Sequence record: NC_055709.1
DNA from: Escherichia phage phiE142
DNA: 64,000 nt
Reading direction: 5' to 3' (one strand)
Shown: positions 1,475-58,282 of the stretch, one piece after another
Layout of the letters: every line of letters starts with the position of its first letter
Position numbering within the stretch: the first letter of the stretch is position 1
Notes under the pieces: generated by a model
What the model was told of the DNA's origin: nothing
Database searches by the model: none
Seen by the model: only the letters and a program-made list of their open reading frames with translations
Position numbers and translations under genes: made by a program

Positions 1475-1525
1475 TTCTCCAGTAGTTGATAGGTCTATAA
1501 TAACACAACTACTGGAGAAGTAAAC
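1475..1525 (-). promoter_or_regulatory. early promoter stem-loop cassette (PeSL-like): GTTTAC -35, extended -10 in loop of perfect 14-bp inverted repeat
   Basis: TTCTCCAGTAGTTG / CAACTACTGGAGAA arms flank the -10; 3' arm carries SD of downstream gene. Confidence 0.6.
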
Positions 1526-1900
1526 TTAAAAACGTAATTTAGATATATCTGCGTTGATTTCGTTTTGGTTTGCGTCGTATGCAATTAAACGAACCGCTTT
1601 AGATGGGTCATTCAATGCATAGAAATGATGGAACATTGCTCGAACGATATCACCATTTACGAGTTCTACCTGGATAGGAGAACCTTTTTCGAGTTGGAAA
1701 TGTTCATAAGCTTTAATGGTTCGCAGATAATCAAGTTTTTGATTTCCGGCTCCAACGATTTGTACGATACGTTTGCCCATGTTTTCCATACGAGATACAA
1801 TAGTTTTAGGAGCAAGAATAACGTAGGTTGCCAGCGGAGAAACTACTTCAACAGTTGTGTTTTCGGTGATTGCAGTAAAAATTGCTTGAGACATATTCAT
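1526..1900 (-). CDS. hypothetical protein, 124 aa
   Basis: ATG verified with AAGAGGA SD; early promoter upstream. Confidence 0.5.
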   Translation of the reverse strand: MNMSQAIFTAITENTTVEVVSPLATYVILAPKTIVSRMENMGKRIVQIVGAGNQKLDYLRTIKAYEHFQLEKGSPIQVELVNGDIVRAMFHHFYALNDPSKAVRLIAYDANQNEINADISKLRF

Positions 1901-1924
1901 AATGTTTTCCTCTTGGTTGGTGTA

Positions 1925-1959
1925 AGTACATCATATCATGACTAGAGGAAGATGTAAAC
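1925..1959 (-). promoter_or_regulatory. early promoter (GTTTAC -35, 17-nt spacer, ATATGAT -10)
   Basis: upstream of 1526-1900. Confidence 0.4.
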
Positions 1960-1966
1960 CCCGAAA

Positions 1967-1990
1967 GGAGACCGAAGTCTCCTTTTTATT
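1967..1990. terminator. GGAGAC-CGAA-GTCTCC hairpin with T-run, immediately after gene 41
   Basis: 6-bp GC stem with tetraloop; T-run is on plus strand so orientation ambiguous. Confidence 0.45.
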
Positions 1991-3431
1991 AAAATTTTAA
2001 CTCATTGGCTAAGCTATCTAGGTCAGCACGTGTTGCTTTGGCTTTACCTACGCGTTCCGTACGATTCACCTCTGCCTGACGCATCTGAGCACCTGCGTTT
2101 TCATTTACCGTGTTAGGTGTGTTCATGCCTTCTTGCTCAATCTCAACCCATTTCTGATTGCCTTTACGTACACCCATCAGGAATTTATTCCACTTATTCT
2201 TATCACCATATCGTGATTTGATTTGTTTGATAAGTTGTTGTTCAGCTTGTGCAAGTTCTTCGGTTTCAATTACAGCCAACATGAAATCTGCCGTTGCTGG
2301 TAAACCTGCTGATTCTGCAATATCGCTCATGTTCATGTCTGAAGCATCCCATGCTGCACGTCCTACTTGAGCTGCAGTCCATAGAACTGTTTCAGATTCT
2401 ACTGCTAATGCACGAAGTTCTTCTGCGATAGCTTTAACTAATGTGTAACTATTTTCAGTGTAAACTCTGATACGACAAGACCCACAAATACCTAAGTAAT
2501 CGACTATGATTACAGACGGCACAAAGTTCTTCTTGAGTTTCAATTCATTAAGCAATGCACGGAATGTATTAGCATTAGCTCCACCAGTAGGATACTGTTT
2601 GACTACTAAACGTCCTAATGTTGATTTTGAACGCCATTTTTCCATCTTGGCTTTATATTCAGCATAAGATACGTTACCATCATCGATATCATCGAGTGAT
2701 ACGTCAAGCATGTTTGCATCTATACGCTTAGCACAAACTTCTTCAGCCATTTCCATGGAAATATAAAGAACATTATGTCCTGTTTGAAGATAATCTGCAG
2801 CAAGTGAACAAAGGCCTAAAGATTTACCAACGTTAACACCGGCCATTAAAACGTTCAGTGTACCTGTTTCAGCACCACCTTTGGTGATTTTATTCAGAAT
2901 GTTTAATTTGAACGGGACCTTACGTGCTTTATTTAGATAAGAAAGCCAGCGTGCTTCATAGTCTTCCATCCAGTCATGACCAACATAACTATCAAACGAA
3001 ATTGAAAGTGCTTGACGCATAATATCAGGAATAGCTCCTACGTCAGGCATTTTCTTGTTACGTTGTTCTGGAGGTAGTTCGGCATTAGTCTGAATCTCAA
3101 TGATTTTGGACGTGGCATTATACATCGCTTTTTGCTGGACATATTTCTCAGTTTCTTTAACCAACCATTCGTGGTCTTCAGGAGTATCAGCCAATTTTTC
3201 AATTAGGTCTGAAGTTCCTTTATACTCTACTTCGGTTAAAGAACTGTTATCTAAAGCCACCTTTAATGCATTAATGGATGGCATTGCGTTATATTCGTTA
3301 ACGTGGTTCTTTATAATTTTAAAGACATTTTTTGCCGGTCCACGCTCAAAATACTCAGAATCCATATAAGGCCAGACCTTAGAAAAATAAGCCTGGTCAT
3401 ATACGAGATGAGACAAAATAATTTCTACCAC
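1989..3431 (-). CDS. 41: gp41 replicative DNA helicase (DnaB family)
   Basis: N-terminus MVEIILSH as in T4 gp41; Walker A GVNVGKS; GTG start codon. Confidence 0.95.
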   Translation of the reverse strand: MVEIILSHLVYDQAYFSKVWPYMDSEYFERGPAKNVFKIIKNHVNEYNAMPSINALKVALDNSSLTEVEYKGTSDLIEKLADTPEDHEWLVKETEKYVQQKAMYNATSKIIEIQTNAELPPEQRNKKMPDVGAIPDIMRQALSISFDSYVGHDWMEDYEARWLSYLNKARKVPFKLNILNKITKGGAETGTLNVLMAGVNVGKSLGLCSLAADYLQTGHNVLYISMEMAEEVCAKRIDANMLDVSLDDIDDGNVSYAEYKAKMEKWRSKSTLGRLVVKQYPTGGANANTFRALLNELKLKKNFVPSVIIVDYLGICGSCRIRVYTENSYTLVKAIAEELRALAVESETVLWTAAQVGRAAWDASDMNMSDIAESAGLPATADFMLAVIETEELAQAEQQLIKQIKSRYGDKNKWNKFLMGVRKGNQKWVEIEQEGMNTPNTVNENAGAQMRQAEVNRTERVGKAKATRADLDSLANELKF

Positions 3432-3440
3432 GATAACTCC

Positions 3441-3782
3441 TTAAAAGAATTTAAATTTTTTCTTGGTTCGTTCATTAAAAGCTTGTTGTACCTGCATTGT
3501 AACACATTTTTCAACATGTGGTGCAAGTTCTGCTTTTCTGTCCTGGTCAAGAACTGCAAAGTCCATTACGATTTTACCATCAACCCAGTCTAGTTTTGTA
3601 ATATAGACTATATGATGAGAACCGTCTTCAAGTGTAATCAGAATCTCTTGAATGACATTTTCCATTGCTGAACGGATAATTTTAAGAGATTCATTAAACA
3701 CTCGTTCTTTGCGAATGTCTTCCCCTTCCGAAGAAGGGGATTCATCAACGATTTCTAGATTTAAATCATCGAGATTATTCAT
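3441..3782 (-). CDS. 40: gp40 head vertex assembly chaperone
   Basis: position between uvsX and 41; track start is TTG, trimmed to ATG at 3782 just after uvsX stop. Confidence 0.7.
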   Translation of the reverse strand: MNNLDDLNLEIVDESPSSEGEDIRKERVFNESLKIIRSAMENVIQEILITLEDGSHHIVYITKLDWVDGKIVMDFAVLDQDRKAELAPHVEKCVTMQVQQAFNERTKKKFKFF

Positions 3783-5595: not shown

Positions 5596-5596
5596 T

Positions 5597-22918: not shown

Positions 22919-23247
22919 TTTGCCGCCTTAACAATTTTCAGGTCAACGAATTTTTTCTTACGTTGATTTTTCATACGACGGATAGTCTTTTCAGAGATTT
23001 CATGTTTCTGATAAGCTTTAGATTCAACACCAAATGCAGCAACGTCAAATTCAGAAAGAATATATTGTACTAGAATTTCACGAATAGAATTACGTCCAAT
23101 TTTCTGGTCGTGTTTTTGCATGATTTCATAAAGACGGAATTCCCACGCATCAAGAACTTGAGGAGTAACAATATTGCCAGATTCCAGAAGAGCAACAACT
23201 TTATCGAAAGCGAAAGAATTAACTACGTTTTTGATTTTAGTAGACAT
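22915..23247 (-). CDS. hypothetical protein
   Basis: trimmed to ATG with GAGGA SD. Confidence 0.4.
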   Translation of the reverse strand: MSTKIKNVVNSFAFDKVVALLESGNIVTPQVLDAWEFRLYEIMQKHDQKIGRNSIREILVQYILSEFDVAAFGVESKAYQKHEISEKTIRRMKNQRKKKFVDLKIVKAAK

Positions 23248-23266
23248 ATTATTTTCCTCGGTTATT

Positions 23267-23554
23267 TTAATATCCAACGAGAGAATTATACTCATCTCTC
23301 AAGAGTTTGTATACTATTTTTTTAAGCATGAAAAGTAAGTAATTTGTATCACGTGGAGTAATATCAACACCCATATCAAAGATGCCTTTATGGATTGGGT
23401 ATTTGTTTTCGGTTGTATCGAAGCTGAAACTATTTCCATCACATCTAACAGTAATAGCATCTGTTAAAATGTCATACTCAATCCTAACAATTGAATCCCC
23501 AATTTTAACGTCGAGGTGTTTTTTGAATTTGATAAAATCTAATTCTTGGGCCAT
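23267..23554 (-). CDS. hypothetical protein, 95 aa
   Basis: track ORF, ATG verified. Confidence 0.4.
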   Translation of the reverse strand: MAQELDFIKFKKHLDVKIGDSIVRIEYDILTDAITVRCDGNSFSFDTTENKYPIHKGIFDMGVDITPRDTNYLLFMLKKIVYKLLRDEYNSLVGY

Positions 23555-24506: not shown

Positions 24507-24724
24507 GTCTTAATTTCCTTCGCAATTGAACAGAAGATACCACGGTCACAAAGCATTTCACCAATTTCTGGATATTTGATTGAACGGTACCAAACATCCA
24601 GGCTTGAAACTTTGGTTATCTGTACTGCATTACCGTTGACCGAATAGTACTGGTCAACCTTAATTTCTTTATCTTCAATTGTCATTTTATTTTCCTCTAT
24701 AGTAGATGGTGTTAATCTTAACAT
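24503..24724 (-). CDS. hypothetical protein, 73 aa
   Basis: track ORF, ATG verified. Confidence 0.35.
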   Translation of the reverse strand: MLRLTPSTIEENKMTIEDKEIKVDQYYSVNGNAVQITKVSSLDVWYRSIKYPEIGEMLCDRGIFCSIAKEIKT

Positions 24725-24820
24725 ATCTATCGAGGATGTAAACTGTTTTATGAAAATATTTTTTGATTTGAGAGGGGCACAAGGAGATAGTGAAGTGAAG
24801 ATTCCAATGGATTATATTAG

Positions 24821-28579: not shown

Positions 28580-28880
28580 ATTTAGTAAACGTTATAAAAG
28601 TTACGATGAGAACGTTTAGCTTTGCGAAGCTGACGTTTAGTAGGACGAACTGTAAATGGTTGTCCAGAGAAAAAATTCGGATCGGTTTTAATAAGCAAAT
28701 ACCAATCACGCTTGCCATTTTTTAATAAACGGTACAATAATTTAACTTGCATAATAATCTCTTCCCATTTCCATATCAATTAATTCATTTATTGAAGGTT
28801 CATCATAACATGGTTCTTCGTCGTTGTAAACCGTTTCGACGTCTGGCTCGACAGTCTCCCATCGAGCAGAATACCACGGT

Positions 28881-30523: not shown

Positions 30524-31473
30524 TATAACACCTCAATGGCATTTCGTAAACCATCCGCTTTCGCATTCAGAGCTTTTAACGATTTAGTTTGTTCTGCAAT
30601 CTGGGCTTCGACTTCTTTCAGACGAGATTTGAGATATTCGCGTTCTTCTCTTAAGTTATCAACTTTTTCTGCTTTAGGTTCTTTAATAGGCTTAGGCTTA
30701 TACTCGTTAGGGTTCTTCAACTTAATTTGAATGCGAGAACTGTATAACATTGAACCATTATCTTCGGTTTCATCATACATTTCTACCACGTCCATGATTC
30801 TTAACATCATGCGAAGTTTATAAGACAGCGAACGAATGGTTTTGTTGCGCTTATTAATTTCTTCGGCTTTCATAGTACCGAGATTACGTGAGTAATAATA
30901 AGGAACCTGGATATCAATTGATAACGACGCGGTGCCATTACCGGTTGGTTTGAATACTGCAGTAACCCAATCTTTAACATGAACTTTATTTGTACGATCA
31001 TCACCGCCTGTGAATAATTTACGTGAATGTTTAAAAAGCATATTCACTTGGTTATTGAATTCACAAGCAAATTTATCAGCAAATTTAGTTTCAGGAATGG
31101 TAGATAACCAATCAGCCAAATGAGTCTTTTTAACATCATTAACAATAGTGAATTCAACCAAATCTGTTTTAGATGTCACAGATTTAATAAAGCTCGGTTT
31201 CATAAAGTTTTTAATGTTATCGCGAGCTACAGTAGAAGATAATAAACGAGAACGTTTAAACCATTGAAGCAGCGTCCCTAATGAATGAGAATACGCATTT
31301 TGAGTATCTTTACAGATATGATTTTCTTGGCCTGTGTATGTACCAAAATCGCGAAGAATACCACTTACTACATCTCGGTGTGGAACATCAAATCCTAGTG
31401 CGCCAACAGCGCGCTGGGCGTGAACGTTAGCGATAAGTCCTGCAAAGTAATCAATGTAATGTGAACGTGTCAT
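30523..31473 (-). CDS. hypothetical 316-aa protein with C-terminal coiled coil
   Basis: ATG verified; own PeSL promoter. Confidence 0.5.
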   Translation of the reverse strand: MTRSHYIDYFAGLIANVHAQRAVGALGFDVPHRDVVSGILRDFGTYTGQENHICKDTQNAYSHSLGTLLQWFKRSRLLSSTVARDNIKNFMKPSFIKSVTSKTDLVEFTIVNDVKKTHLADWLSTIPETKFADKFACEFNNQVNMLFKHSRKLFTGGDDRTNKVHVKDWVTAVFKPTGNGTASLSIDIQVPYYYSRNLGTMKAEEINKRNKTIRSLSYKLRMMLRIMDVVEMYDETEDNGSMLYSSRIQIKLKNPNEYKPKPIKEPKAEKVDNLREEREYLKSRLKEVEAQIAEQTKSLKALNAKADGLRNAIEVL

Positions 31474-31501
31474 AATATTTTCCTCTCGTTAAGATAGATT
31501 C

Positions 31502-31531
31502 ATTATACTCCAACCATCCTTGGTTGTAAAC
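31502..31531 (-). promoter_or_regulatory. PeSL cassette: GTTTAC, stem-loop CAACCA-TCCT-TGGTTG, TATAAT
   Basis: 27-bp core identical to copy at 32522. Confidence 0.6.
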
Positions 31532-31535: not shown

Positions 31536-32495
31536 TTATGATTTTAATGCATTCATTGCGTTAAAAAGTTTAGAATACTGCAACTGGAGATTCGTTACAA
31601 CACTTTGAGCATCACGAAGCTTAGCTTGTGCTTTGTCAAGTTCAACAGACAGTTGGTCTACAGTAGCCTTGATTTGATTGTAATGGTAATCTTCGGCCGG
31701 AATAAGGTCATTAGAAACATTTAGTTTTACTGCAGACAGTTTGCACACATTTGGCAAACCTTTAAACATTGATTTACCCGAAGTAGAATAAGCACTTAGG
31801 ACTTCGGCCTGTTCAATTGGGGTCCCAGTAAGCGATGCTTCAAACAATGCATTTTCTTTTTTAAGATTTTGATAGTATTCAGAGTCTTTGTGCCACCATG
31901 GCGCAGGAACCTTTTTACCAATAGATACACGAGCCTGGATAGCGATATGGCCCTTATTCTTGATAGGGTCGATAATATTAAGCTCACGAGAATAAATTGC
32001 TTTAATCTGGTGAATATTATCACCTAACACTTCCAACGCTTGGTGGAATACACGAGCAACGTTATCATTCTTAGGTTTATACGTAAGAGTGAACTCGTTC
32101 TCACTGATAACCATGATTTCTAACTTATCATAAGTATATTTCAAATGTTTCATGTTAATTGCTTGAGGACGAATACGAGAAGCAATGGCCATCAGATTGT
32201 TAAGGTTATTCCGGAACTGCTTAGCGAAATATTGTCCTTCACCGCCAATACAAAAATTACGAAGTTTCTGTTTGGCTAATAAACGGCTGAACTCGCCATT
32301 TTTAATGAACTCTTTAACTGGTGTGTTAGTAACGCATTCAAATTGAGTAAACTTACGAGAAGTAATCCCATAATATGAACAGACTTCCTCAATCTCTTCA
32401 GGAGTCTTTACAGGCATACGGATAGGATTAGGTCCTGGAGTATATGCGTTCGAGGTAAATTCTTTGATAAGTTCTTTACGTGTAATAAAAGCCAT
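31536..32495 (-). CDS. hypothetical 319-aa protein with C-terminal coiled coil
   Basis: ATG verified; own PeSL promoter. Confidence 0.5.
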   Translation of the reverse strand: MAFITRKELIKEFTSNAYTPGPNPIRMPVKTPEEIEEVCSYYGITSRKFTQFECVTNTPVKEFIKNGEFSRLLAKQKLRNFCIGGEGQYFAKQFRNNLNNLMAIASRIRPQAINMKHLKYTYDKLEIMVISENEFTLTYKPKNDNVARVFHQALEVLGDNIHQIKAIYSRELNIIDPIKNKGHIAIQARVSIGKKVPAPWWHKDSEYYQNLKKENALFEASLTGTPIEQAEVLSAYSTSGKSMFKGLPNVCKLSAVKLNVSNDLIPAEDYHYNQIKATVDQLSVELDKAQAKLRDAQSVVTNLQLQYSKLFNAMNALKS

Positions 32496-32521
32496 TTTAT
32501 ATTCCTCATGTTGAAAAATTT

Positions 32522-32551
32522 ATTATACTCCAACCATCCTTGGTTGTACAT
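32522..32551 (-). promoter_or_regulatory. PeSL cassette, near-identical copy of 31502-31531
   Basis: ATTATACTCCAACCATCCTTGGTTGTA repeated. Confidence 0.55.
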
Positions 32552-33608: not shown

Positions 33609-34136
33609 TTATGCGTGAACCGTCTTTAAACGTTCTTCAAATTTCCGAAGAGTACTAATACGTTCTGCTTTCTGTTTTGTATAGTTTGCAATACGTTCTG
33701 AAGTGAGAGCGTATCGTTCGTTTACTGATTCTTTCATGAAGTCAGGGATTTCACGAGAAGCTTTAATTTCATCAAACTTATCGAGTACTGCCTGGTCTTC
33801 AGCAATTAAATTTTCGTACATCTCGATATCTTTCTTGATGAAGTCGATATCTTCCTGGGTTACTTTGGATAAACGAGATGCTTTATCCTTTTTGTACTGT
33901 TCGTTAGTTTCACGAGACCAGAATAATGTACGTTTTTTGTTAGTGTTTTTATAGACTTCCACAATTCCAACTGAATCGATGATAACAATCCAATTCCAGC
34001 GAGATTTGAAAATCTGACCTCCGTCCACGGTAATCTCGTTACCATAAGCAACGTCATTAAAGAACTTGCTTTGTGCTTCAGATTTAAATTTACCGTCGTT
34101 ATAATTTACCAGGTTGAAAATATCTTTAGCGTTCAT
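33609..34136 (-). CDS. hypothetical protein, 175 aa
   Basis: ATG verified; PeSL upstream. Confidence 0.45.
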   Translation of the reverse strand: MNAKDIFNLVNYNDGKFKSEAQSKFFNDVAYGNEITVDGGQIFKSRWNWIVIIDSVGIVEVYKNTNKKRTLFWSRETNEQYKKDKASRLSKVTQEDIDFIKKDIEMYENLIAEDQAVLDKFDEIKASREIPDFMKESVNERYALTSERIANYTKQKAERISTLRKFEERLKTVHA

Positions 34137-34149
34137 GTTTTACCTCCAG

Positions 34150-34192
34150 TAGTTGATAGGTCTATAATAACATAACCATAGACCTTGTAAAC
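34150..34192 (-). promoter_or_regulatory. PeSL cassette (GTTTAC, AGGTCTAT/ATAGACCT inverted repeat around TATTAT -10)
   Basis: upstream of 33609-34136. Confidence 0.55.
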
Positions 34193-34477: not shown

Positions 34478-35458
34478 TCATTTCAGTAAAGTAACTTCCG
34501 AGATTTCCTCCCAACCATCTTTATCGGTTGAAATAAAATCTGCTACATAAAGAGCCGTACGTAATGATACATTGCGAAGACGAGATACGTTAGCCTTCAT
34601 CCAGGACAATGCTTTGTACGTTTCAGCATCAGTCAAGCCACGTTTCTGCATCATGTCAGTAGATAATATTACATCTTCAACTCGAACCATAATCTCTTCA
34701 TTAGAGTGTACTCCAAGGTCGAGATACACTGAACGAGATACTAAAGCTTGAAGGTGCGGAGCAAGTTTCGAACCGCGTTCTAACTCTTTATCAATATCAA
34801 CGTTTGTAATGAAAACGATAGTACCTTCAAACTCAAATTCTTTATCAATACCCTTATCATCAAGATAAGATGACGCAGTGCTCCAGCAAACTTTGCGTTT
34901 ATCGCCAGTATCTAATGCGGCTTTAAGAAGGTTCAAGATGTCCATATCCGAGAATACGTCAACGTCGTCGATTAAGAGAACGCTGTCTGCATCACGGTTG
35001 AGCCAAAGTTGTTCGTAAAGGCCAATACCTGAGATTTTACCATTAATGCTTTTGTATTTGATGAAACCATTATCATTAGCATTATTAAGCGCTTTATCCA
35101 GAGAATACGTCTTACCAATACCTGCTGCACCTGAAATAATGAGTGAACGAATTTTGCCATCGATAATGCCATTCGTCATCATGTTCATTACTTTAAAGCG
35201 TTTGTTGATACGAGTTTTCATATCTTCCGCGTTTTCAACAACTGCAACTGGTGATGTCTCAACTCCTTCCATTACGATGTCTGATTTGAAGACCCATACT
35301 CCACGTTCAGAACCATCAATCATAACGAAAATTTTACCGTCACCTAAGTGGGAACATTCAGGATTAAGCTTTGCCGGGAACCATGTCTTTGTGGCAACAT
35401 AAGAACCAGAGATTTCGTTATTACGATAGATACCTTTTTTGATTTGAACGTTGAACAT
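34478..35458 (-). CDS. AAA+ ATPase
   Basis: Walker A GAAGIGKTY, Walker B LLIDDVD; TTG extension trimmed to ATG with GGAGA SD. Confidence 0.65.
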   Translation of the reverse strand: MFNVQIKKGIYRNNEISGSYVATKTWFPAKLNPECSHLGDGKIFVMIDGSERGVWVFKSDIVMEGVETSPVAVVENAEDMKTRINKRFKVMNMMTNGIIDGKIRSLIISGAAGIGKTYSLDKALNNANDNGFIKYKSINGKISGIGLYEQLWLNRDADSVLLIDDVDVFSDMDILNLLKAALDTGDKRKVCWSTASSYLDDKGIDKEFEFEGTIVFITNVDIDKELERGSKLAPHLQALVSRSVYLDLGVHSNEEIMVRVEDVILSTDMMQKRGLTDAETYKALSWMKANVSRLRNVSLRTALYVADFISTDKDGWEEISEVTLLK

Positions 35459-35489
35459 TTTATTCTCCAAATTTACTCATTTCGTTTCG

Positions 35490-35526
35490 ATAGGTCTATA
35501 ATAACATGTTTAAAGCAAAAGTAAAC
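35490..35526 (-). promoter_or_regulatory. early promoter (GTTTAC, 17-nt spacer, TATTAT)
   Basis: upstream of AAA+ ATPase gene. Confidence 0.5.
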
Positions 35527-35528: not shown

Positions 35529-35747
35529 TTATTTGCGATGAGATTTTTTGGTAAGAGGTTGAAAGAACACTGCTTTACCAGCAGGAGTCAAAGTGACTCG
35601 TAATGCATTACCGATTCCCAAGGATGCTTTAACCAGACCTTTAGATTTCAGTTCACCGAATGCTTGTCGTTGGTCTGCATCACGAGTGTTAACCATAAGT
35701 CCTTTATCACCAGCTTCACGAATCATTTCTAACATTTTGGTTTTCAT
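35529..35747 (-). CDS. hypothetical small basic protein, 72 aa
   Basis: track ORF, ATG verified. Confidence 0.35.
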   Translation of the reverse strand: MKTKMLEMIREAGDKGLMVNTRDADQRQAFGELKSKGLVKASLGIGNALRVTLTPAGKAVFFQPLTKKSHRK

Positions 35748-35769
35748 TTTGTTTTCTCCTCTTGTTTTG

Positions 35770-35806
35770 ATAGGTCTATAATAACATATCCTAAAAGCAT
35801 GTACAC
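35770..35806 (-). promoter_or_regulatory. early promoter variant (GTGTAC -35, TATTAT -10)
   Basis: same GATAGGTCTATAATAACAT core as other cassettes. Confidence 0.4.
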
Positions 35807-37853: not shown

Positions 37854-38161
37854 ATTATTCACCAATTAAAGTTTCAACAAAATTCACCAAATCATTCTGA
37901 CGAGCATCAACTTGTTTTTCATAAAAGTCTCCATAGTCATTTACTGCATGATAAGCTACATCATTTAAATCTGAATCAGCTTCACGTAAGTCATGGATAA
38001 GGTCCATCAATTTATTAGCTTGTTCGCGTGTCATTTTACCATACTCGCTTCAATAAGATTCACTATGCCGTTTACCATGTTATAAGTAAACATCGGATAA
38101 TTGTATTGTACTACAACATAAGCGATAAGCAAAAGTTTCATTTTGTTCTCCGTTCGTTTTG

Positions 38162-38199
38162 GTAGGACTACTATAACATAATCCTACCAAGATGTAAAC
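38162..38199 (-). promoter_or_regulatory. PeSL cassette (GTTTAC; TAGGACTA/TAGGATTA imperfect inverted repeat around -10)
   Basis: member of AGGACTACTATAACATAGTCCT family. Confidence 0.5.
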
Positions 38200-38432: not shown

Positions 38433-38592
38433 ACATTTGCAATTCGGTGTGGGCTTCGGCCATCTTTTTCATAGCTCTGTTAATGTCGATGTCTCCATCT
38501 TCGCAACCATGAGCATTTTCCCAATCAGATACCGCATTAGCGTACTCTTCAATCAAAAACATCAACTTAGAAATCTTTTCTTTACGTGTCAT
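38413..38592 (-). CDS. hypothetical protein, 59 aa
   Basis: internal ATG with AGAGGAGA SD; track N-extension overlaps promoter cassette. Confidence 0.3.
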   Translation of the reverse strand: MTRKEKISKLMFLIEEYANAVSDWENAHGCEDGDIDINRAMKKMAEAHTELQMYVNEIM

Positions 38593-38599
38593 AGCGTTC

Positions 38600-38648
38600 T
38601 CCTCTAGTAAGTAAGGTTTACTATAACACAACCTGAGGAGAAGTAAAC
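38600..38648 (-). promoter_or_regulatory. PeSL cassette (GTTTAC, CTCCTC/GAGGAG arms)
   Basis: upstream of 38413-38592. Confidence 0.45.
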
Positions 38649-41785: not shown

Positions 41786-42244
41786 CTAGATTTTAATCAC
41801 TGCTTTAGAAGCTTTTCCTGGTAGTCGTTTACTGTTAATAATAGCCATTCTACATTGAAGAGTCTTCATTTTGAATGCCGGATTTTCACGACAAACTGTA
41901 AGGCCTAACCAAAGATTTCCATCAGTTATTTCTAAACGGCCTGGGCGGTATTCGACACCTTCGACAAAATCTTCGTCAACATCTGGACGTGCAGGCATTG
42001 ATAAAAATTCTGCAACTTCTTTAACGTGATTTTTTACTTTACGAAATAATTCAAAAACGTAATTCTCATCTATTTCTCTCTGGATGGCACGATCTAAGAG
42101 ATGTTGAGAATACTTGATATGAAAGCCTGGTAGTCCAAGAGACTCTGCAGCATCTTTTATACCGGCATTGATTTGACGAAACTCCGTTTCAAAGATTCGA
42201 CGGAGTTTATTGCGACGGATAAAAACTTCCGAATTGATAGTCAT
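41786..42244 (-). CDS. regB: RegB endoribonuclease
   Basis: MTINSEVFIRRNKLRR...HLLDRAIQREIDE...RLEITDGNLWLG as in T4 RegB. Confidence 0.9.
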   Translation of the reverse strand: MTINSEVFIRRNKLRRIFETEFRQINAGIKDAAESLGLPGFHIKYSQHLLDRAIQREIDENYVFELFRKVKNHVKEVAEFLSMPARPDVDEDFVEGVEYRPGRLEITDGNLWLGLTVCRENPAFKMKTLQCRMAIINSKRLPGKASKAVIKI

Positions 42245-42251
42245 TTTTATT

Positions 42252-42301
42252 TCTCCTCTAGTTGACAGGTCTATAGTAACACAACTAGAGGAGAAGTAAA
42301 C
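42252..42301 (-). promoter_or_regulatory. PeSL cassette upstream of regB (13-bp perfect inverted repeat CTCCTCTAGTTG/CAACTAGAGGAG)
   Basis: GTTTAC -35 plus TGTTACTAT -10 in loop. Confidence 0.6.
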
Positions 42302-44392: not shown

Positions 44393-44971
44393 TTAATTAC
44401 CACGGGCTGCATTAGCAACGGCGTAAGCATACTGAATATTAGCGTCTTTAAACGTACCTTTAGAGGTATCTATTTCCGCCTTAAAGCCGCCTTTAGCCAT
44501 AACATCGGCAAATTCTTTACGGAAAGCCATTGCATCAAGACCTTTCCATGATGATTTATGCTTGGCAAATTCAAGACCAGCGTAGTTGACAGCTTTAGCC
44601 AATTTATTATCAATGACCCATTTACCTGCTTTAGGCACAAACTTCGGGCCTTTTTGTTTAGAGAACAGTTTTAAATTCCAGCGACGAAGGTCACTGTCGG
44701 CTTTAACAAAAGCTGCGTCTAAGTTACTAGCAACGACATCTTCAATATGAGCAAATTTAAGTCCGTCAACTTCAATATTTAGATCGTTACGCCAGCGTAG
44801 TCCTTCCCAAGCGAAGGCTTTAAAATCAGAAGCTTTTGTGGCTAGATATCGTTCAAGTGGAGCAGTTTTAGGGTCAAAACCATTTCCGCCACGATAATTC
44901 CACTCGTCCTTATTAATGCCTTGGACTTTTCCTGCAAAGGCCTCGGCGATAAATTCTTTATATGTTTTCAT
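44393..44971 (-). CDS. internal (injected) head protein, IPIII-like, with capsid-targeting sequence
   Basis: N-terminus MKTYKEFIAEA; Lys/Ala-rich; early promoter upstream. Confidence 0.7.
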   Translation of the reverse strand: MKTYKEFIAEAFAGKVQGINKDEWNYRGGNGFDPKTAPLERYLATKASDFKAFAWEGLRWRNDLNIEVDGLKFAHIEDVVASNLDAAFVKADSDLRRWNLKLFSKQKGPKFVPKAGKWVIDNKLAKAVNYAGLEFAKHKSSWKGLDAMAFRKEFADVMAKGGFKAEIDTSKGTFKDANIQYAYAVANAARGN

Positions 44972-44999
44972 TTTTGTTTCCTTGTTTGTTTTGATAGAG

Positions 45000-45031
45000 T
45001 AATTATACCATATTAATACTTAAGCGTAAAC
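45000..45031 (-). promoter_or_regulatory. early promoter for IPIII-like gene (GTTTAC, 18-nt spacer, TATAAT)
   Basis: consensus hexamers with correct spacing. Confidence 0.55.
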
Positions 45032-45301: not shown

Positions 45302-45715
45302 TTAGTAAATTGATTTACCATAGTATTTGTACCAAGTGGGACGTTGAGCAATTTTTTCATCTAAGCGTGCTTGACTTATCGCAATGGACGCTTCGGACGG
45401 GACATAATTATTACGAAATTCTACAGGAATGTCGGAAATATCCTGGACTGTCGTGTCCTTGATTTTGAAACCACGTTTCAAACATTCAGCTATTAGCTCG
45501 ATTTGACGTAAACGTAAAAATTCGAGTTTGTCGTAAAAGAATGTTACGTGGCCCGTGCCTAAAATAAATGTTGGAGAGATTTTAAAATCTTTTACACGTT
45601 TACCATTTTGAACATGTTTACGGACTGCACCGAATACACGAGGTAATTCACGATACTCAGCCATAAGATGTTGGTCGGTCAGTTCAGAAACAAGTGTTAA
45701 ATTGATACGAGTCAT
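45302..45715 (-). CDS. denV: DenV endonuclease V (pyrimidine-dimer DNA glycosylase)
   Basis: [35 protein letters not shown] as in T4 DenV; start trimmed to M5. Confidence 0.9.
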
Positions 45716-45720
45716 AATTT

Positions 45721-45772
45721 CCTCCAAGTAGTTGATAGATGTATAGTATCAAAACCCTTGGAGGAAGTAAAC
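45721..45772 (-). promoter_or_regulatory. PeSL cassette upstream of denV (CCTCCAAG/CTTGGAGG arms)
   Basis: GTTTAC + TATACAT-type -10 in loop. Confidence 0.55.
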
Positions 45773-46055: not shown

Positions 46056-46540
46056 ATATACGCTTTCCAAGTTCCTGTTTTAAATGTTGAGATTACGCGT
46101 TTCGCGCGATTAGGCGTCTGACGATACCATTTAGATTGGGCTAGATTTACTGCCGCTTCATCCCAACGTTTCTGTTGAAGCATACGAAGAGAATTAGTAA
46201 AACCGGCGACGCCTGATACGCCCATTTGGAAGACCATATTGACCAATGCACATCGACGAACCGCATCTAAAGAATCATATACCGGTTTAAGTTTAGCATT
46301 ACCCAAGATTCCGCGAATGGCTTTATCGACGTCTTCATTAAATAACTTTTCAGCCTCATCAAGGGTAATTGTACCGTTGCATTTACGACCGATCATCCTG
46401 TCAAGTTCAGCTTTAGCTACGGCTAAAGACGGGTTCTTTGTTACTAAATGGCCTATGCCAATCGTCCAAAAGCCTTCGGTGTCTTTGTATAAAGTCAGTC
46501 TAAGACCTTCGTCATTACGAAGCATTTCAAATATATTCAT
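46052..46540 (-). CDS. e: e lysozyme (endolysin, T4L family)
   Basis: [23 protein letters not shown]...catalytic E11/D20/T26 context; 162 aa. Confidence 0.95.
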
Positions 46541-46574
46541 AATACCTCCTACGTTTATAGGAGGTATTTATTAC

Positions 46575-48434: not shown

Positions 48435-48740
48435 TTATTTTCCTCGACATTCTTTAATGAAATTTTCTAGATTGGTAGATTCAATAGCTTTTTTACGAGC
48501 TTCTGCATGTTCTTCTTCAGACAATTTACATTTATAATTAACCCAGACGTTATGGTCAAAACTAGTCGTGGCATATAATAACAAAGCCCCGACGAATAAT
48601 AAAAATGGTGATAAGAATACAAAACCAGGAGCACCATCCATATCGTAAGCCTTTTGTAATACTGCAACAGAAAGAGCTGCGTAAAAAGGTGATGCAAATA
48701 TTGTAAAAAGACCAATTCGGTTGGTTTCGCCTAATTTCAT
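48435..48740 (-). CDS. membrane protein, 101 aa
   Basis: two TM helices; PeSL upstream. Confidence 0.4.
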   Translation of the reverse strand: MKLGETNRIGLFTIFASPFYAALSVAVLQKAYDMDGAPGFVFLSPFLLFVGALLLYATTSFDHNVWVNYKCKLSEEEHAEARKKAIESTNLENFIKECRGK

Positions 48741-48758
48741 AATATTCTCCTCATGTTT

Positions 48759-48796
48759 TAATAGGACTACTATAACATAGTCCTATAATTGTGTAA
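48759..48796 (-). promoter_or_regulatory. PeSL cassette (ATAGGACTA/TAGTCCTAT arms)
   Basis: identical core to 57541 and 57870 copies. Confidence 0.55.
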
Positions 48797-48810
48797 ACAG
48801 TTTTGCGAAA

Positions 48811-49795: not shown

Positions 49796-50047
49796 TTAAA
49801 TTTCACGACATGCGATATTATATTCATCCCAGAGGTCGTCATGTGAAGCCTCTACCAATGGAACGATTGTACCGTTTATGTCTTCATTATAAGGACAAAT
49901 TGTACAGTGCGCATCTTCGAATCGTATGCCTTTGTGTTCAGATTTTTTATAACGCATATCGAATATCTTTGCAAACTTTTCACGAGTAATAGTTTTAGCA
50001 ACTACTTCGGTTCCGATACTTTCGTAATAAATCATTGTAGACTCCAT
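49796..50047 (-). CDS. hypothetical protein, 83 aa
   Basis: track ORF, ATG verified. Confidence 0.35.
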   Translation of the reverse strand: MESTMIYYESIGTEVVAKTITREKFAKIFDMRYKKSEHKGIRFEDAHCTICPYNEDINGTIVPLVEASHDDLWDEYNIACREI

Positions 50048-50054
50048 TTAATTT

Positions 50055-50093
50055 GATAGGACTACTATAACATAGCCCTATCTTGTTGTAAAC
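50055..50093 (-). promoter_or_regulatory. PeSL cassette (imperfect AGGACT/AGGGCT arms)
   Basis: GTTTAC + TGTTATAGT. Confidence 0.5.
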
Positions 50094-50892: not shown

Positions 50893-50990
50893 TTTCTACA
50901 TTCCTTAATAAAGTTTTCGATTGTTTCATTTTCACGTCTAGCTAGGAGTTCATTATAACTAATCATTTGAGAAGCGTAAACAGCATAAAT

Positions 50991-51997: not shown

Positions 51998-52591
51998 TTA
52001 TTTCAAAGAGTTAATATATTCTTGTACATCAGCAGAAGTGGTTTCAACACCGGCTGGAGTGCCATTGAATGTTTCAACACGAGTCAGAGTGTCTTCGATA
52101 TCAACCTTAGTCAGTGCAGCAATTTCGATTACATCATCAGCCGTAGAGATACCAAGGGCATTGGCTGCTCGAGTTTCGCGGATGTATTCAAGTTTGATTG
52201 CCAGATTCTGACGAGCATCATCAAGTTCAACCACCTTACGAGCAATTTCAATTCGCATGGCGGCATACCCGTCAGCTTTTGTATTAAGTTGTTCGGCGGT
52301 TCGACGATACAGAAGACCAAGCTTAGCATGCATGGTAACATCTTGTCCTTCAGCCAGGAGCTTACGAATTTCACGTTCCTTAGAAGCGGCTTGCTTGTTC
52401 TTTTCATTAACAAGTTCGCGAATACGTTTTTCTTCATTAATAGATTTAATAGAAGCAGTTTTTAGTTCTTTGATTTGGGTAATCAACTTATCTGCAGCTG
52501 CGTTATACTGTTCTTCGACAGTCAGATTTTTAGCCATAGCAGTACCCAGTTTAGTGCGGATGAATTCAACAAGTTTCTTCAGTGTGTTCAT
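51998..52591 (-). CDS. coiled-coil protein (PspA-like architecture, uncertain)
   Basis: long heptad-like helical sequence; trimmed to ATG. Confidence 0.4.
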
Positions 52592-52662
52592 ATTATTACC
52601 TTTCAATTGGTGGTTTTATTATCCAACGAGAGCATTATACTCTGCTCTCAAGAGTTTGTAAA

Positions 52663-52890
52663 TTATTTTTTAATCAAATTGACATAAAACTTGGCGTCTT
52701 CTGGGTGCATGCCTTCGCAGTATTCTTCAACCATGAACTTCTTAACAGCTTCATAAGGACCACTCAGATTAAGCTCAGTTGTCCAGAACTTGGAATCTTG
52801 GACTGAATCGATACGAACTTCAGGGTGACGGTTGCGAATAACTTCTTCGGTGTATTCATAATCAACGACATCAATACTAACTGTAGCCAT
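52663..52890 (-). CDS. hypothetical protein, 75 aa
   Basis: track ORF, ATG verified. Confidence 0.35.
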   Translation of the reverse strand: MATVSIDVVDYEYTEEVIRNRHPEVRIDSVQDSKFWTTELNLSGPYEAVKKFMVEEYCEGMHPEDAKFYVNLIKK

Positions 52891-52910
52891 TTTGTTTCTC
52901 CTCTTGATTT

Positions 52911-52948
52911 GATAGGTCTATAGTAACACCGTCCATGGTGTTTGTACA
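52911..52948 (-). promoter_or_regulatory. promoter-like cassette (TGTACA -35-like, TGTTACTAT -10)
   Basis: GATAGGTCTATAGTAACAC core. Confidence 0.35.
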
Positions 52949-53479
52949 TCATTTATTTTTAATTTTGCAAATTTTTCCAGCTTCGATACATGCAGCATAG
53001 ATGATGCTCTGGGCAATTTTATTGCTAGTAGACCTTGCAATCACACTAAGAACAATTTCTTTTTCTTCACCACCACAACCCCAGGACCTTTGCTCATGAG
53101 TACCTTTAACTACGGCTGAAACTTCAACAGAACGTCCGCCATCAGAAGTTTTAACATCTACAACCCAATCGCCATCTTTCTCTTCAACCTGTGGTTTATC
53201 CCAAGAAATACTAATATATGATTCACTGTCAATAGAAGTCGCCGGGTTTTTCTTTACTGTAAGACCTTCACTTTCCAGCCATTCAATAGTATTTGCGCAT
53301 AAATCAGAAGAACACCTCATCGGAAACTGGCAAGATTTTTCACCTTTAGCTGCAGCGTTATACATCTTTTCTAAAATACGCTTTTGCACGTTTTTAAAAA
53401 TAGTTTCAGCAGATTCTTCAGATTTTTTATTCAGTTCAGTATAAAGACTCATAACATTCTTCTCATTAATAGGGCTCAT
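52949..53479 (-). CDS. hypothetical protein, 176 aa
   Basis: track ORF, ATG verified. Confidence 0.4.
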   Translation of the reverse strand: MSPINEKNVMSLYTELNKKSEESAETIFKNVQKRILEKMYNAAAKGEKSCQFPMRCSSDLCANTIEWLESEGLTVKKNPATSIDSESYISISWDKPQVEEKDGDWVVDVKTSDGGRSVEVSAVVKGTHEQRSWGCGGEEKEIVLSVIARSTSNKIAQSIIYAACIEAGKICKIKNK

Positions 53480-53509: not shown

Positions 53510-53773
53510 TTATTTCATATTATCGAAATATTCTTCAGCGATTTCGACATTATCATGGTAAACTTTAGAAGACAGTTTAACATAACCTTCTGCTGCGAAC
53601 ATATTAATCACAACCTTTACAGTATACCATTGTCCGTCTTCATTACCCATTACTGCGTAAGTTTCAAACATCGGATGGTTAGGTCCAATAACTTTAATAT
53701 CATTCACCGTACGTCCGAAATCTTCTGGAACGCATTTCATAAAGAAATTGAACAGTTCACCGTAATTATCCAT
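53510..53773 (-). CDS. hypothetical protein
   Basis: trimmed from TTG to ATG with GGAGA SD. Confidence 0.35.
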   Translation of the reverse strand: MDNYGELFNFFMKCVPEDFGRTVNDIKVIGPNHPMFETYAVMGNEDGQWYTVKVVINMFAAEGYVKLSSKVYHDNVEIAEEYFDNMK

Positions 53774-53804
53774 TTCATTCTCCAAGGTTTTTCTGTATCA
53801 GTGG

Positions 53805-53845
53805 TTGATAGTTGTATAGTACCACGGAAGAACAGGGATGTAAAC
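53805..53845 (-). promoter_or_regulatory. early promoter (GTTTAC, TACTATAC -10)
   Basis: upstream of 53510-53773. Confidence 0.45.
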
Positions 53846-55244: not shown

Positions 55245-55295
55245 AAGCCTTGCGGCAGCCTTGTCGGGGTTCCACCTGCTAAGGCAAGTGTTTGT

Positions 55296-55386
55296 ACGAA
55301 ACGCCGGGATTCGAACCCGGTTATTAAGCAGTTGACGCTACTCAATATTTTTAAAGGCCATATCTCGACCATATCCGAACGTTCCG
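55296..55386 (-). other. tRNA-like fragment: T-arm plus acceptor 3' half without a canonical cloverleaf (possible tRNA remnant or stable-RNA 3' domain)
   Basis: minus-strand CCGGGTTCGAATCCCGG T-arm followed by 7-nt acceptor-like strand; no foldable D/anticodon arms. Confidence 0.3.
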
Positions 55387-55556
55387 TCAAAAACGCTACT
55401 CGGCTTACGGCAAAGATATTTCCTCGAATCGATAATTCTGTGCGCCGTTTCTGCTGTGATGTAAGGGGATATTAACGAATCATAAAGATTTATTAAGACC
55501 AGTCCTTACTCAGGGAACATCAGTCCGACGACTTGCCGGTAGCGACCCGGCTTCTC

Positions 55557-55919: not shown

Positions 55920-55996
<77 letters not shown>

Positions 55997-56002: not shown

Positions 56003-56076
56003 TGACCCAGACCAGATTCGAACTGGTAACCTTTCCCTTATGAGGGGACTGCTGCTAACCGTTGAGCTACAGGGCC
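56003..56076 (-). tRNA. probable tRNA with CAU anticodon (Met or Ile2-type)
   Basis: T-arm ACCAG-TTCGAAT-CTGGT, anticodon loop CTCATAA; acceptor has one mismatch and D-arm is atypical. Confidence 0.5.
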
Positions 56077-56675: not shown

Positions 56676-56966
56676 TCACCGTACCATATTAATGTAATTA
56701 TATTCAATGCAACGTAATTTCAAAGGATTCTTGAAAATATCATATTCAAGAGGGCCTTTTTCTGTTTCAATAAAGAAATCAAAGTTAACTGTGTTAAATT
56801 TATAATCTTCACAGAGTAATTTAACTTGCGAAGACGAACGGTCGATATAAACCTTTTCAACCTCAAAGTTAGTCAGAATACCGTAGTCATCAACTAGTGC
56901 TTTAGCTGCACGTTGATCGCTTTCGTATCCGTTCTCAATAGATGACACTTTAGCATAAAGAATCAT
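56676..56966 (-). CDS. hypothetical protein, 96 aa
   Basis: track ORF, ATG verified. Confidence 0.35.
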   Translation of the reverse strand: MILYAKVSSIENGYESDQRAAKALVDDYGILTNFEVEKVYIDRSSSQVKLLCEDYKFNTVNFDFFIETEKGPLEYDIFKNPLKLRCIEYNYINMVR

Positions 56967-57325
56967 GAATGTTCCACCACTTCAAAGCTATGGGCATCAA
57001 CAATATGATACCAGTCAAAATTTTCTTCTGCGTTTTTATAAATTTCGCGAAGAGCCTCAACGGTTTTTCCTGTAGCAACAAGGTCGTCAATACCACCAAG
57101 AGGATAACAGTCGTAACCAGCAAACAGAAGGAAATTAATAGTTTCTGTAGGTTCTGGATGCAGAACACCGTTATCATCTACCACTTCAAAGAAAGTGTAA
57201 GAAGGAGTACAAGTTTTAATCCAAGCCCATGCTTGAGCTGCCGAATCAAATGGTCTACGTATCAAACGACAATCAGGGTCTTTAGAAGGATTTGCTTCAA
57301 AATCTGCATATACATGATATTTCAT
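56963..57325 (-). CDS. hypothetical protein, 120 aa
   Basis: track ORF, ATG verified. Confidence 0.4.
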   Translation of the reverse strand: MKYHVYADFEANPSKDPDCRLIRRPFDSAAQAWAWIKTCTPSYTFFEVVDDNGVLHPEPTETINFLLFAGYDCYPLGGIDDLVATGKTVEALREIYKNAEENFDWYHIVDAHSFEVVEHS

Positions 57326-57532
57326 TTACTCACCTTTTGCAATTTTATCCATAACAATAGCGATTAAACCGATTAGAAATGCTACTACCAATGAGATAGA
57401 ATTTTCGGTTGTTGTCAGTAGTCCGCAAATGAATCCTACAAACATCGAAAAACTAAAAGCCATTGAAGCAATTACTACAGCAACATTACGAATCAGTTCA
57501 GCGCGTTTCATTTTATTTCTCCATTTACTCAT
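57326..57532 (-). CDS. small membrane protein, 68 aa
   Basis: TM helices; PeSL upstream. Confidence 0.35.
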   Translation of the reverse strand: MSKWRNKMKRAELIRNVAVVIASMAFSFSMFVGFICGLLTTTENSISLVVAFLIGLIAIVMDKIAKGE

Positions 57533-57540
57533 TTTGTTTT

Positions 57541-57579
57541 GATAGGACTACTATAACATAGTCCTATAGGCTTGTATAC
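57541..57579 (-). promoter_or_regulatory. PeSL cassette (ATAGGACTA/TAGTCCTAT arms, GTATAC -35-like)
   Basis: family member. Confidence 0.5.
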
Positions 57580-57581
57580 CT

Positions 57582-57845
57582 TTATTTCAAATATATTGCG
57601 TATTTTTTATAGCCACCAGGCTCATGTCGAAGACCTTTATCATTCGCAAAACGTTGAATGTTATTGAACTGATTTTCGTCAAGTTCGGATGTGTTAAATA
57701 TGAAAAAGTTTCGTTTGTTACCAAGCGTGATATGCGGAGTTAAGTCAATGTTATACAAATTAAGAATATCAGCAATAACCTGATTGACCGCTTTGTTAAT
57801 TTTCACACCAGACGATTCTGAGATGAATTCGTTGAAAGTTTTCAT
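57582..57845 (-). CDS. internal-protein-like small protein with capsid-targeting sequence
   Basis: N-terminus MKTFNEFISES after trimming to ATG. Confidence 0.5.
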   Translation of the reverse strand: MKTFNEFISESSGVKINKAVNQVIADILNLYNIDLTPHITLGNKRNFFIFNTSELDENQFNNIQRFANDKGLRHEPGGYKKYAIYLK

Positions 57846-57869
57846 TTTAGGTTCCATTTTGTTGTTTTG

Positions 57870-57907
57870 TTAGGACTACTATAACATAGTCCTACCAAGA
57901 TGTAAAC
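57870..57907 (-). promoter_or_regulatory. PeSL cassette (TAGGACTAC/TAGTCCTA arms, GTTTAC)
   Basis: family member upstream of IP-like gene. Confidence 0.55.
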
Positions 57908-58218
57908 TATTTTATGCCTTTAGATGAAATAGTGTTCTGGCGTTTAACCCCAGTTTGTGAAAAATCATGGTTATCAATTTGGTCAACTCGCATAACACCA
58001 AACGCAGATTTAATTTTGGCCTTTGAACCTTTTTTGATACTAATTACCATATAAGTGTCATTTTTCTTATATTCGTAATTTGATACTTCAACGCCTTGAT
58101 TAGAAATTGACTTAATAATAGCATTAGCGTATTCATCATCTAATGGGCCGTTAGTGTTAATAACAAAATTTTTATCCGCTTTAGTAGCTTCAGCGATGAA
58201 TTCTTTATAGGTTTTCAT
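57907..58218 (-). CDS. internal-protein-like protein with capsid-targeting sequence (IPI-like position)
   Basis: N-terminus MKTYKEFIAEA; adjacent to acb1/57A as ipI is in T4. Confidence 0.55.
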   Translation of the reverse strand: MKTYKEFIAEATKADKNFVINTNGPLDDEYANAIIKSISNQGVEVSNYEYKKNDTYMVISIKKGSKAKIKSAFGVMRVDQIDNHDFSQTGVKRQNTISSKGIK

Positions 58219-58243
58219 TTTATTTCCTTGAGGCTGTTTATTT

Positions 58244-58282
58244 GATAGGATGATAGTAACACACCATCATCTTTATGTAAAC
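58244..58282 (-). promoter_or_regulatory. PeSL cassette (GATGAT/ATCATC arms, GTTTAC)
   Basis: upstream of IPI-like gene. Confidence 0.5.

Follow-up and report, generated by a model that had tools for sequence, protein, structure and literature searches.

The 64,000-nucleotide stretch of Escherichia phage phiE142 analysed here (NC_055709.1; hereafter the window) corresponds approximately to positions 19.5-84 kb of RB69. Its relatives are the RB69-type phages (genus Mosigvirus), which are 95-98.6% identical to it, phiC120 being the closest. Nearly all genes of the window lie on the minus strand, in an order that leads from imm/dmd through the replication genes to the nrdC, tk, vs, regB, denV, e, internal protein (IP) and tRNA regions and then to genes 57, 1, 3 and 2. 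The subject of this work is a family of early promoters in the window, most of which carry an inverted repeat. These promoters probably encode hairpins that form only in read-through RNA, where they would either cover the next Shine-Dalgarno (SD) sequence (class A) or replace a terminator (class B). The untranscribed part of the promoter, its spacer or discriminator, would encode the 5′ arm, so that the hairpin would separate read-through RNA from the promoter's own transcript.

An earlier note on this DNA had described recurrent minus-strand elements made up of GTTTAC, a spacer of about 17 nt and a TATAAT-like hexamer, with a GATAGG(A/T)CTA core, and a motif search bore this description out. 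GTTTAC-N17-TATAAT-like sites are enriched in the window and almost all of them lie on the minus strand, and the core GATAGGWCTA (the plus-strand form of TAGWCCTATC) is present in 7 copies against 0.17 expected. A two-block position weight matrix (PWM), built from the window's own sites and run on both strands and on shuffled sequence, returned 25-32 minus-strand matches at scores where the plus strand and the shuffled sequence gave 0. After removal of duplicates 25 strong promoters remain, all of them on the minus strand, intergenic and located 20-36 nt 5′ of an SD sequence and ATG. Each is named here by the coordinate of the G of its -35. Their consensus comprises an A-rich UP region, GTTTAC (aaaacaGTTTAC), a spacer of 17-18 nt ending in TGT, TAT(A/T)(A/G)T, AG(A/T)CCT and, at +1, ATCAA. 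Judged by this sequence, the elements are sigma-70-type early promoters of an RB69-like T4-type phage. The same motif, with GTTTAC, a -10 and C residues at -3 to -1, defines the 57 early promoters predicted in the RB69 genome 5′ of T4 orthologues and of novel open reading frames (Nolan 2006, PMC1524935), a paper in which the words hairpin and stem-loop do not occur. In the window together with the T4-type loci fetched for comparison, 401 such promoters lie on the gene strand, compared with 1 on the other. All strong promoters of the window fall within the nrdC, tk, vs, e, IP and tRNA regions, which are its variable or hyperplastic regions, and the PWM scan found none between 2000 and 23000, the replication core (genes 41, uvsX, 43, 45, 46 and 47). 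Several head conserved genes such as regB and denV and not accessory cassettes.

An inverted repeat is present in 20 of the 25 promoters. The arm sequences vary among copies and complementarity is retained, as the earlier note had proposed, and the five arm sequences it quoted can all be found as inverted repeats. The family further includes five promoters without a hairpin worth the name (45031, 35806, 35526, 953 and 523), and it reaches below 1475, where the note's description began, with members 953, 523 and 212. Spacers pair with their own downstream regions at a mean of -11.6 kcal/mol, compared with -8.5 +/- 0.55 kcal/mol when the window promoters are re-paired (0 of 20,000 permutations). 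Every hairpin has its 5′ arm between the -35 and the predicted +1 (at -30 to -1 where the SD is the partner), and any start close to the canonical +1 would leave that arm out of the promoter's own transcript. The hairpin should therefore be possible only in RNA arriving from an upstream promoter. Three classes can be distinguished. In class A (n=7) the spacer's partner is the SD of the following gene, and the arms, 17-25 nt apart, span the -10 and the start site; 1525, 42301 and 45772 are strong examples and 38648, 24743, 1959 and 53845 weak ones. In class B (n=10: 58282, 57907, 57579, 52663, 50093, 48798, 38199, 34192, 23314 and 212) the spacer pairs with the discriminator and +1 to give a stem of 9-13 bp and a 6-nt loop at or next to the -10. 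These elements are near-perfect palindromes with an AT-rich 6-nt centre. Class C (n=3: 52949, 32551 and 31531) has a small hairpin within the spacer. Rfam holds no family for the promoter-hairpin elements, its matches in the window being two tRNAs only.

The strong class A promoters precede an RB69ORF040c-like gene, regB and denV. At the first (1468..1525, minus strand) the spacer TTCTCCAGTAGTTG pairs with the SD sequence CAACTACTGGAGAA; the read-through RNA folds at -21.7 kcal/mol (z -5.3) and the promoter's own transcript at 0 kcal/mol. At the regB promoter (42242..42301, minus strand) TTCTCCTCTAGTTG pairs with CAACTAGAGGAGAA, with -22.6 kcal/mol (z -4.8) for read-through RNA and -1.0 for the own transcript. 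At the denV promoter (45713..45772, minus strand) TTCCTCCAAG pairs with CTTGGAGGAA and the values are -19.2 kcal/mol (z -4.0) and -2.1. Read-through RNA of the strong class thus spans -19 to -23 kcal/mol (z -4 to -5.3), against 0 to -2 for RNA starting at the predicted +1. The position of the 3′ arm on the SD itself points to translational control rather than to a terminator or a recombination cassette. The anti-SD arm would silence translation of the next gene in read-through RNA, and RNA from the gene's own early promoter, with its free and unstructured leader, would be translatable. Production of RegB, DenV and the ORF040c product would in that case depend on the brief activity of their own early promoters. 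The early promoter of regB is off by 2-3 min and RegB cuts its own SD (PMC3014915); silencing of read-through regB would fit this known tight control.

Conservation of the class A hairpin was followed in 45 T4-type loci drawn from IMG/VR by two RegB scans. The helix between the spacer of the regB promoter and the SD is kept in 16 of 20 distinct lineages. Its SD-distal part differs between them in a compensated manner (TAGTTG/CAACTA, TGACTG/CAGTTA and TTTATG/CATAAA, and further GTAAG/CTTAC, TTTTAGT/ACTAAAA and CATTTG/CAAATG), and in an anchored alignment both sides have changed at 10 of 14 pairs. The covariation score is 0.382, compared with 0.127 +/- 0.025 for shuffles (0/500) and 0.06-0.10 for slid-partner controls. 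RNAalifold found no structure in a plain MAFFT alignment of the regB promoters because the arms shift in register. For denV, all 18 distinct lineages (18/18) pair the SD in read-through RNA, and the predicted own transcript is unstructured with its SD free. The placement of the denV anti-SD arm varies: some lineages have it in the spacer, others in the -10/discriminator, and in all of them it precedes the predicted +1. In loci L030, L033, L034, L037, L038 and L040-L044 the arm that pairs with the SD/AUG lies in the -10 and discriminator, as in TATGATGTCCTCC...GGAGGACATCATG.

The same loci supplied a wider set of 120 non-redundant promoters. Own-partner pairing in this set has a mean of -10.45 kcal/mol, compared with -7.0 kcal/mol for cross-partner pairing (z = -16.5), and 31% of the promoters reach -14 kcal/mol or below against 2.5% of cross pairs. 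The position of the 3′ arm in the 43 strong helices is bimodal: it falls on the discriminator in 22 helices and on the SD in 17, while 2 cover the SD in part and 2 lie in mid-leader. Energy-thresholded duplex and motif-enrichment tests were used here in place of a minimum free energy (MFE) metric that proved uninformative. An anti-SD tetramer is found in the untranscribed spacer or discriminator of 39% of promoters against 14% after shuffling, a 2.8-fold enrichment (p = 7e-12), and a strong duplex covers the SD in 20 of 119 promoters against 4.7% in the null (p = 8e-7). A strong anti-SD arm is present in about one promoter in 6, and some strong hairpin in about one in 3, of this T4-type set. 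Internal mismatches are G.T rather than A.C by 19 to 5, or by about 14 to 5 once redundant helices are removed, a bias which suggests that the structure acts on the sense strand. The broader proposition, that T4-type phages, T4 included, systematically encode the 5′ arm of a read-through-sensing RNA switch in untranscribed early-promoter DNA, is in our estimate evenly poised. For regB and denV such an arrangement persists from genus to genus through compensatory changes, and even through relocation of the arm from spacer to discriminator.

The relation of the hairpins to intrinsic terminators was examined in the wider promoter set, as the window alone holds too few terminators. Detection was relaxed to include three obvious terminators of the window, and the strict version gave the same conclusion. 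Of the 28 promoters with an intrinsic terminator no more than 75 nt upstream, 3 have a strong hairpin, compared with 40 of the other 92 (p = 0.0014), and class B is absent from the 28 (0/28 against 23/92; p = 0.0018). This mutual exclusion lends indirect support to an attenuator or 3′-end role of the kind proposed for promoter-early-stem-loop (PeSL) elements. The class B hairpin would most likely act as a terminator substitute for the upstream message, by attenuation and/or by protection of its 3′ end.

The promoters are also recombination boundaries. Identical cores of 27 nt link 32551 with 31531 and 57579 with 48798, a core of 24 nt links 57907 with both 57579 and 48798, and one of 29 nt links 34192 with 1525. 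The first three had been listed in the earlier note as the identical copies 31502/32522 and 48759/57541/57870, which are confirmed here at 27, 27 and 24 nt, and the fourth pair is new. The 29 identical nucleotides of 34192 and 1525 run from the -10 through the SD, and their spacers are unrelated. At 1525 an anti-SD closes the common leader; at 34192 the leader is open and the spacer pairs with the discriminator. With a common 29 nt and different spacers, 34192 looks chimeric, as if a crossover within the -10 had switched the hairpin class. Comparison of the window with RB69, PhAPEC2, phiEC1, phiC120 and two IMG/VR relatives gave 39 distinct endpoints of indels or replacements, an endpoint being counted as inside an element when it fell at -95 to +25 of a promoter. 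Elements contain 14 of the 39, against a background of 7.5% (p ~5e-7), and among gene starts the proportion hit is higher for promoters (10/23) than for the others (13/70; p = 0.025). The remaining 25 endpoints, the majority, lie away from elements. The idea that the elements mark cassette boundaries, advanced in the earlier note, holds above chance and not as a rule, 25 of 39 endpoints being elsewhere and several promoters standing before conserved genes such as regB and denV.

Junctions lie inside the common promoter core, and some have 34-74 bp of promoter sequence in common. A 72-aa gene (between 35806 and 35526) and the IP-like genes between 58282, 57907 and 57579 are present, absent or replaced among relatives. 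The junctions of these cassettes lie either within shared promoter sequence or at the promoter at one end and at the capsid-targeting codons at the other. IP cassettes are swapped between the promoter/stem-loop and the capsid-targeting codons at 57579-58196 and 44943-44978. The same pattern was reported for the polymorphic IP locus of T-even phages, where IP genes are exchanged between a promoter/stem-loop element and the capsid-targeting codons (Repoila 1994, as summarized in PMC2839356 and PMC4122927). An 8.7-kb deletion between 48798 and 57579, which leaves a chimeric promoter, joins window position 57535 to 48787 across the 27-nt repeat. It is found only in Av-05, where it could be an assembly mis-join, and is weak evidence for recombination. 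The suggestion that identical copies may be recombination substrates agrees with the junctions in shared cores; for the pair 48798/57579 the deletion comes only from the anomalous Av-05 record. The 19-29-nt identical cores would serve, as a side effect, as homology patches for the deletion, insertion and swap of cassettes. Seven small genes of the window begin with the T4 internal-protein capsid-targeting motif MKT/S-Y/F-x-EF-I/L-x-E (minus-strand starts at 58218, 57845, 55168, 54578, 46055, 45295 and 44971). They are the most polymorphic cassettes between relatives, with crossovers in the first ~10 codons.

Several points weigh against the interpretation of the hairpins as read-through-specific switches. 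The predicted +1 of each promoter is placed from spacing and from the logo of Nolan and colleagues. The role of class B as a terminator-like element is the weakest step of the explanation: no U-tract follows the hairpin at any element, the sequence beyond it being A-rich (ATCAAAAC or AAATAAAAATG), and with its 11-bp arms and 6-nt loop class B might also be extruded as a cruciform in DNA. Class A shows no significant depletion beside upstream terminators (3/28 against 17/92), and 3 or 4 of its 7 members here have weak helices (z -0.4 to -2.4). The alignment behind the regB covariation was anchored by hand on TCCT and AGGA. The G.T and A.C counts are small and partly non-independent, and G.T is the least bad mismatch in single-stranded DNA as well. 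Pairing of the SD to sequence upstream of the transcription start site in the MFE structure gave no support, with 40% for real promoters, 38% for chimeras and 40% for spacer-shuffled sequences.

The nearest published counterparts are the PeSL elements of T4-type phages (Arbiol 2010, PMC2839356; Comeau 2014, PMC4122927), with which the earlier note had matched the family. Like the elements of the window, PeSLs consist of a strong early promoter with an A/T-rich region 5′ of it, a stem-loop, and an SD with ATG; they are concentrated in hyperplastic regions, and they are found at indel or replacement boundaries with the crossover inside the element. In RB49 and phi1 the stem-loop may lie in the upstream A/T region, overlap the -35, lie between -35 and -10, overlap the -10 or lie between the -10 and the start (PMC2839356). 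Class B corresponds to the position overlapping the -10 and class C to that between -35 and -10. By position 13 promoters therefore fit (10 class B and 3 class C), whereas 5 are hairpin-free and 7 belong to class A, in an arrangement that is not listed. The five PeSL subclasses include no spacer-SD pairing, and class A (1525, 42301 and 45772) fits none of them. The promoters differ too, PeSLs having TTGACA and the window the T-even type GTTTAC, as do the stems, which are poly-G/poly-C in PeSLs and otherwise in the window. RB69 is not mentioned in the 2010 paper (PMC2839356), and RB69-type phages are outside the scope of both. The match with PeSLs is partly supported, namely as regards the positions of classes B and C, the hyperplastic location and the breakpoints; class A, the lack of a U-tract and the lack of any terminator call speak against it. 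A predicted read-through-specific hairpin with two targets, conserved and covarying, is the best-supported addition to it.

In their original formulation PeSLs act as terminators or attenuators in all classes and form mobile promoter-terminator cassettes for modular shuffling and the formation of mini-circles. As an account of the present family this is rather unlikely, although it is the strongest competitor to read-through-specific hairpins. The fit of classes B and C to published subclasses, the exclusion between class B and upstream intrinsic terminators and the enrichment of breakpoints, with promoters chimeric across a shared core, are all in its favour, and one stem-loop (SLS) of RB49 reduced lacZ expression as strongly as rrnB T1 (PMC2839356). 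Terminator calling on the window, however, scored no hairpin element as a terminator, the sequence that follows the hairpins is A-rich, class A is undepleted beside terminators, and the majority of indel endpoints (25/39) are elsewhere. Terminator cassettes also leave unexplained that 3′ arms target either the SD or the -10/+1 and hardly ever the stretch between them, and that the anti-SD arm of denV moves between spacer and discriminator yet always covers the SD.

Two further explanations dispense with RNA hairpins. Inverted repeats acting at the level of DNA, as cruciforms or hairpins that modulate promoter opening or shut-off or as structures cut by a nuclease such as endonuclease VII to give recombination hot spots, are improbable here. 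Extrusion is physically conceivable for the near-perfect palindromes of class B with their 6-nt AT-rich centres, the elements are recombination boundaries, and the mechanism by which early promoters are shut off is not fully understood (PMC3014915). The 17-25 nt between class A arms, by contrast, are unfavourable for cruciforms, the bias of G.T over A.C would not be expected of a symmetrical double-stranded structure, and a role purely in DNA does not predict that hairpins are depleted behind upstream terminators. A sequence-specific protein operator was ruled out, as the arms differ freely between copies, and the same variation excludes a sequence-specific protein site in any DNA-level scheme. 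It is more improbable still that the complementarity has no function and arose incidentally, through the duplication and shuffling of promoters or through a chance match of pyrimidine-rich spacers to purine-rich SDs. Many promoters do have long identical cores, some arms are copies, and the naive MFE metric fails to separate real from shuffled sequences. Against this, in many lineages both partners of SD-distal pairs have changed, far in excess of shuffled and slid controls, own-partner pairing is far stronger than cross-partner pairing, the denV helix keeps its strength while its position moves, and anti-SD tetramers exceed composition-matched shuffles 2.8-fold.

Read-through-specific hairpins over an SD have precedents in T4. 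In e, soc, 49 and I-TevI the SD is sequestered by a hairpin in long transcripts, and the transcript of an internal promoter, which lacks the 5′ arm, is translated (PMC3014915). Class A follows the same logic, the SD being held in a stable helix at 1525, 42301 and 45772. The gene e hairpin of the window, a comparator outside the promoter family (46541..46568, minus strand, with gene e at 46540; AATACCTCCTATAAACGTAGGAGGTATT), has a late-promoter-like TATAAA in its loop and sequesters the SD at -16.6 kcal/mol (z -3.5), and it behaves like strong class A when read-through RNA and own transcript are compared. The internal promoters of the T4 genes are late (gp55) or middle and early read-through is silenced, whereas the class A promoter is an early sigma-70 promoter; the logic would thus be reversed in time, with translation only in the first minutes. 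Unlike the T4 hairpins, class A has its anti-SD arm inside the promoter's own spacer or discriminator. With an early rather than a late or middle internal promoter, class A is better described as a variant of the e/soc/49/I-TevI type than as a member of it. Neither regB, denV nor any early promoter is listed among such hairpins in two T4 reviews and the literature searched, which excluded older subscription literature. By this analysis class A may be regarded as the early-promoter counterpart of these T4 hairpins, and a prior description is possible in the older literature on regB and denV.

T4 is a reference system for the study of timed gene expression. How early protein synthesis is shut off in this phage is still described as incompletely understood (PMC3014915), and a 2022 omics study found unexplained gaps between the appearance of transcripts and of proteins (PMC9697503). 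If hairpins of class A act as proposed, translation of these genes would be possible only in the first 2-3 minutes, even where later transcription runs across them. They would constitute an undescribed layer of early-gene shut-off and could explain part of the mismatch in timing between T4 transcripts and proteins. An anti-SD arm built into the promoter would be a simple, protein-free mechanism linking translation of a gene to one of several promoters that transcribe it. Promoter prediction, and the synthetic re-use of strong phage promoters, would have to allow for a spacer that is not neutral sequence. The recombination results support the view that regulatory repeats guide the exchange of gene cassettes in phages used for therapy.

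The remaining members of the family, all on the minus strand, complete the picture. Weak class A pairing is seen at 38590..38648 (TTCTCCTC with GAGGAGAA, z -1.1), which has an intrinsic terminator 5′ and a downstream open reading frame of 59 aa, and at 1898..1959 (TTCCTCT with AGAGGAA, z -0.4), again with an intrinsic terminator 5′. The promoter at 24683..24743 has a moderate class A helix (CCTC..ATAG with CTAT..GAGG; -11.5 kcal/mol, z -2.35), and at 53771..53845 the SD pairing is weak and interrupted. Among class B promoters, those at 58216..58282 (GATGATGG..CTATCATC) and 57843..57907 (TTGGTAGGACTA with TAGTCCTAACAA) are 5′ of internal-protein-like genes, the latter being a cassette boundary as well. 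The promoter at 57509..57579 (ATAGGACTA with TAGTCCTAT) is a recurrent breakpoint, and the one with which it has its 27-nt core in common, at 48738..48798, folds at -15.0 kcal/mol (z -3.3). Stronger stems occur at 50033..50093 (GATAGGGCTAT with GTAGTCCTATC; -19.0 kcal/mol, z -4.6) and 38139..38199 (TTGGTAGGATTA with TAGTCCTACCAA; -19.2 kcal/mol, z -3.3). The paralogous promoters at 52589..52663 and 23245..23314 have GAGAGC with GCTCTC and its compensatory variant GAGAGA with TCTCTC, respectively. Class B is completed by 34134..34192 (AGGTCTAT with ATAGACCT) and 151..212 (GGACTA with TAGTCC).

The class C hairpin at 52888..52949 is formed by CACC..GGTG in the spacer, and a cluster of breakpoints falls on this promoter. 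At 32493..32551 the spacer holds CAACCA-AGGA-TGGTTG behind a weak -35, ATGTAC, and 31471..31531 is identical to it over the 27 nt of spacer and -10. Promoters without a hairpin are found at 44969..45031, 5′ of an internal-protein-like gene and with breakpoints in the block of SD and capsid-targeting sequence, at 35456..35526, at 893..953, just upstream of which RB69 has a 203-bp insertion, and at 463..523. At 35745..35806 the hairpin is absent or degenerate and an intrinsic terminator lies 5′; this promoter and 35526 form the upstream and downstream boundaries, respectively, of the 72-aa gene cassette. A site with perfect hexamers, GTTTAC-N18-TATAAT, at 50952-50981 (minus strand) has neither the discriminator nor the leader of the family and is located in a 460-bp stretch without a called gene. 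An insertion of 250 bp is present precisely at the -35 edge of this site in RB69, PhAPEC2 and phiEC1.

Some further features concern the window and the public records. The record lengths of the closest public relatives are implausible for a genus of ~168 kb, at 120,938 bp for Av-05 (NC_025830) and 186,570 bp for phiC120 (NC_055718), and both assemblies may contain mis-joins at promoter repeats. A 55-bp stretch at 28593-28647 is present twice in RB69 and phiC120, where the copies flank a 549-bp insertion encoding a paralogous small gene; this indel is a recombination between repeated gene ends, unrelated to the promoters. ARAGORN predicts a 94-nt 'tRNA-Stop' with anticodon tta at 55294-55387 (minus strand), without Rfam backing at the gathering threshold. 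Both ARAGORN and Rfam call a tRNA-Arg (55920-55996) and a tRNA-Met (56003-56076). The tRNA content of this region varies among relatives, PhAPEC2, for example, having a third tRNA.

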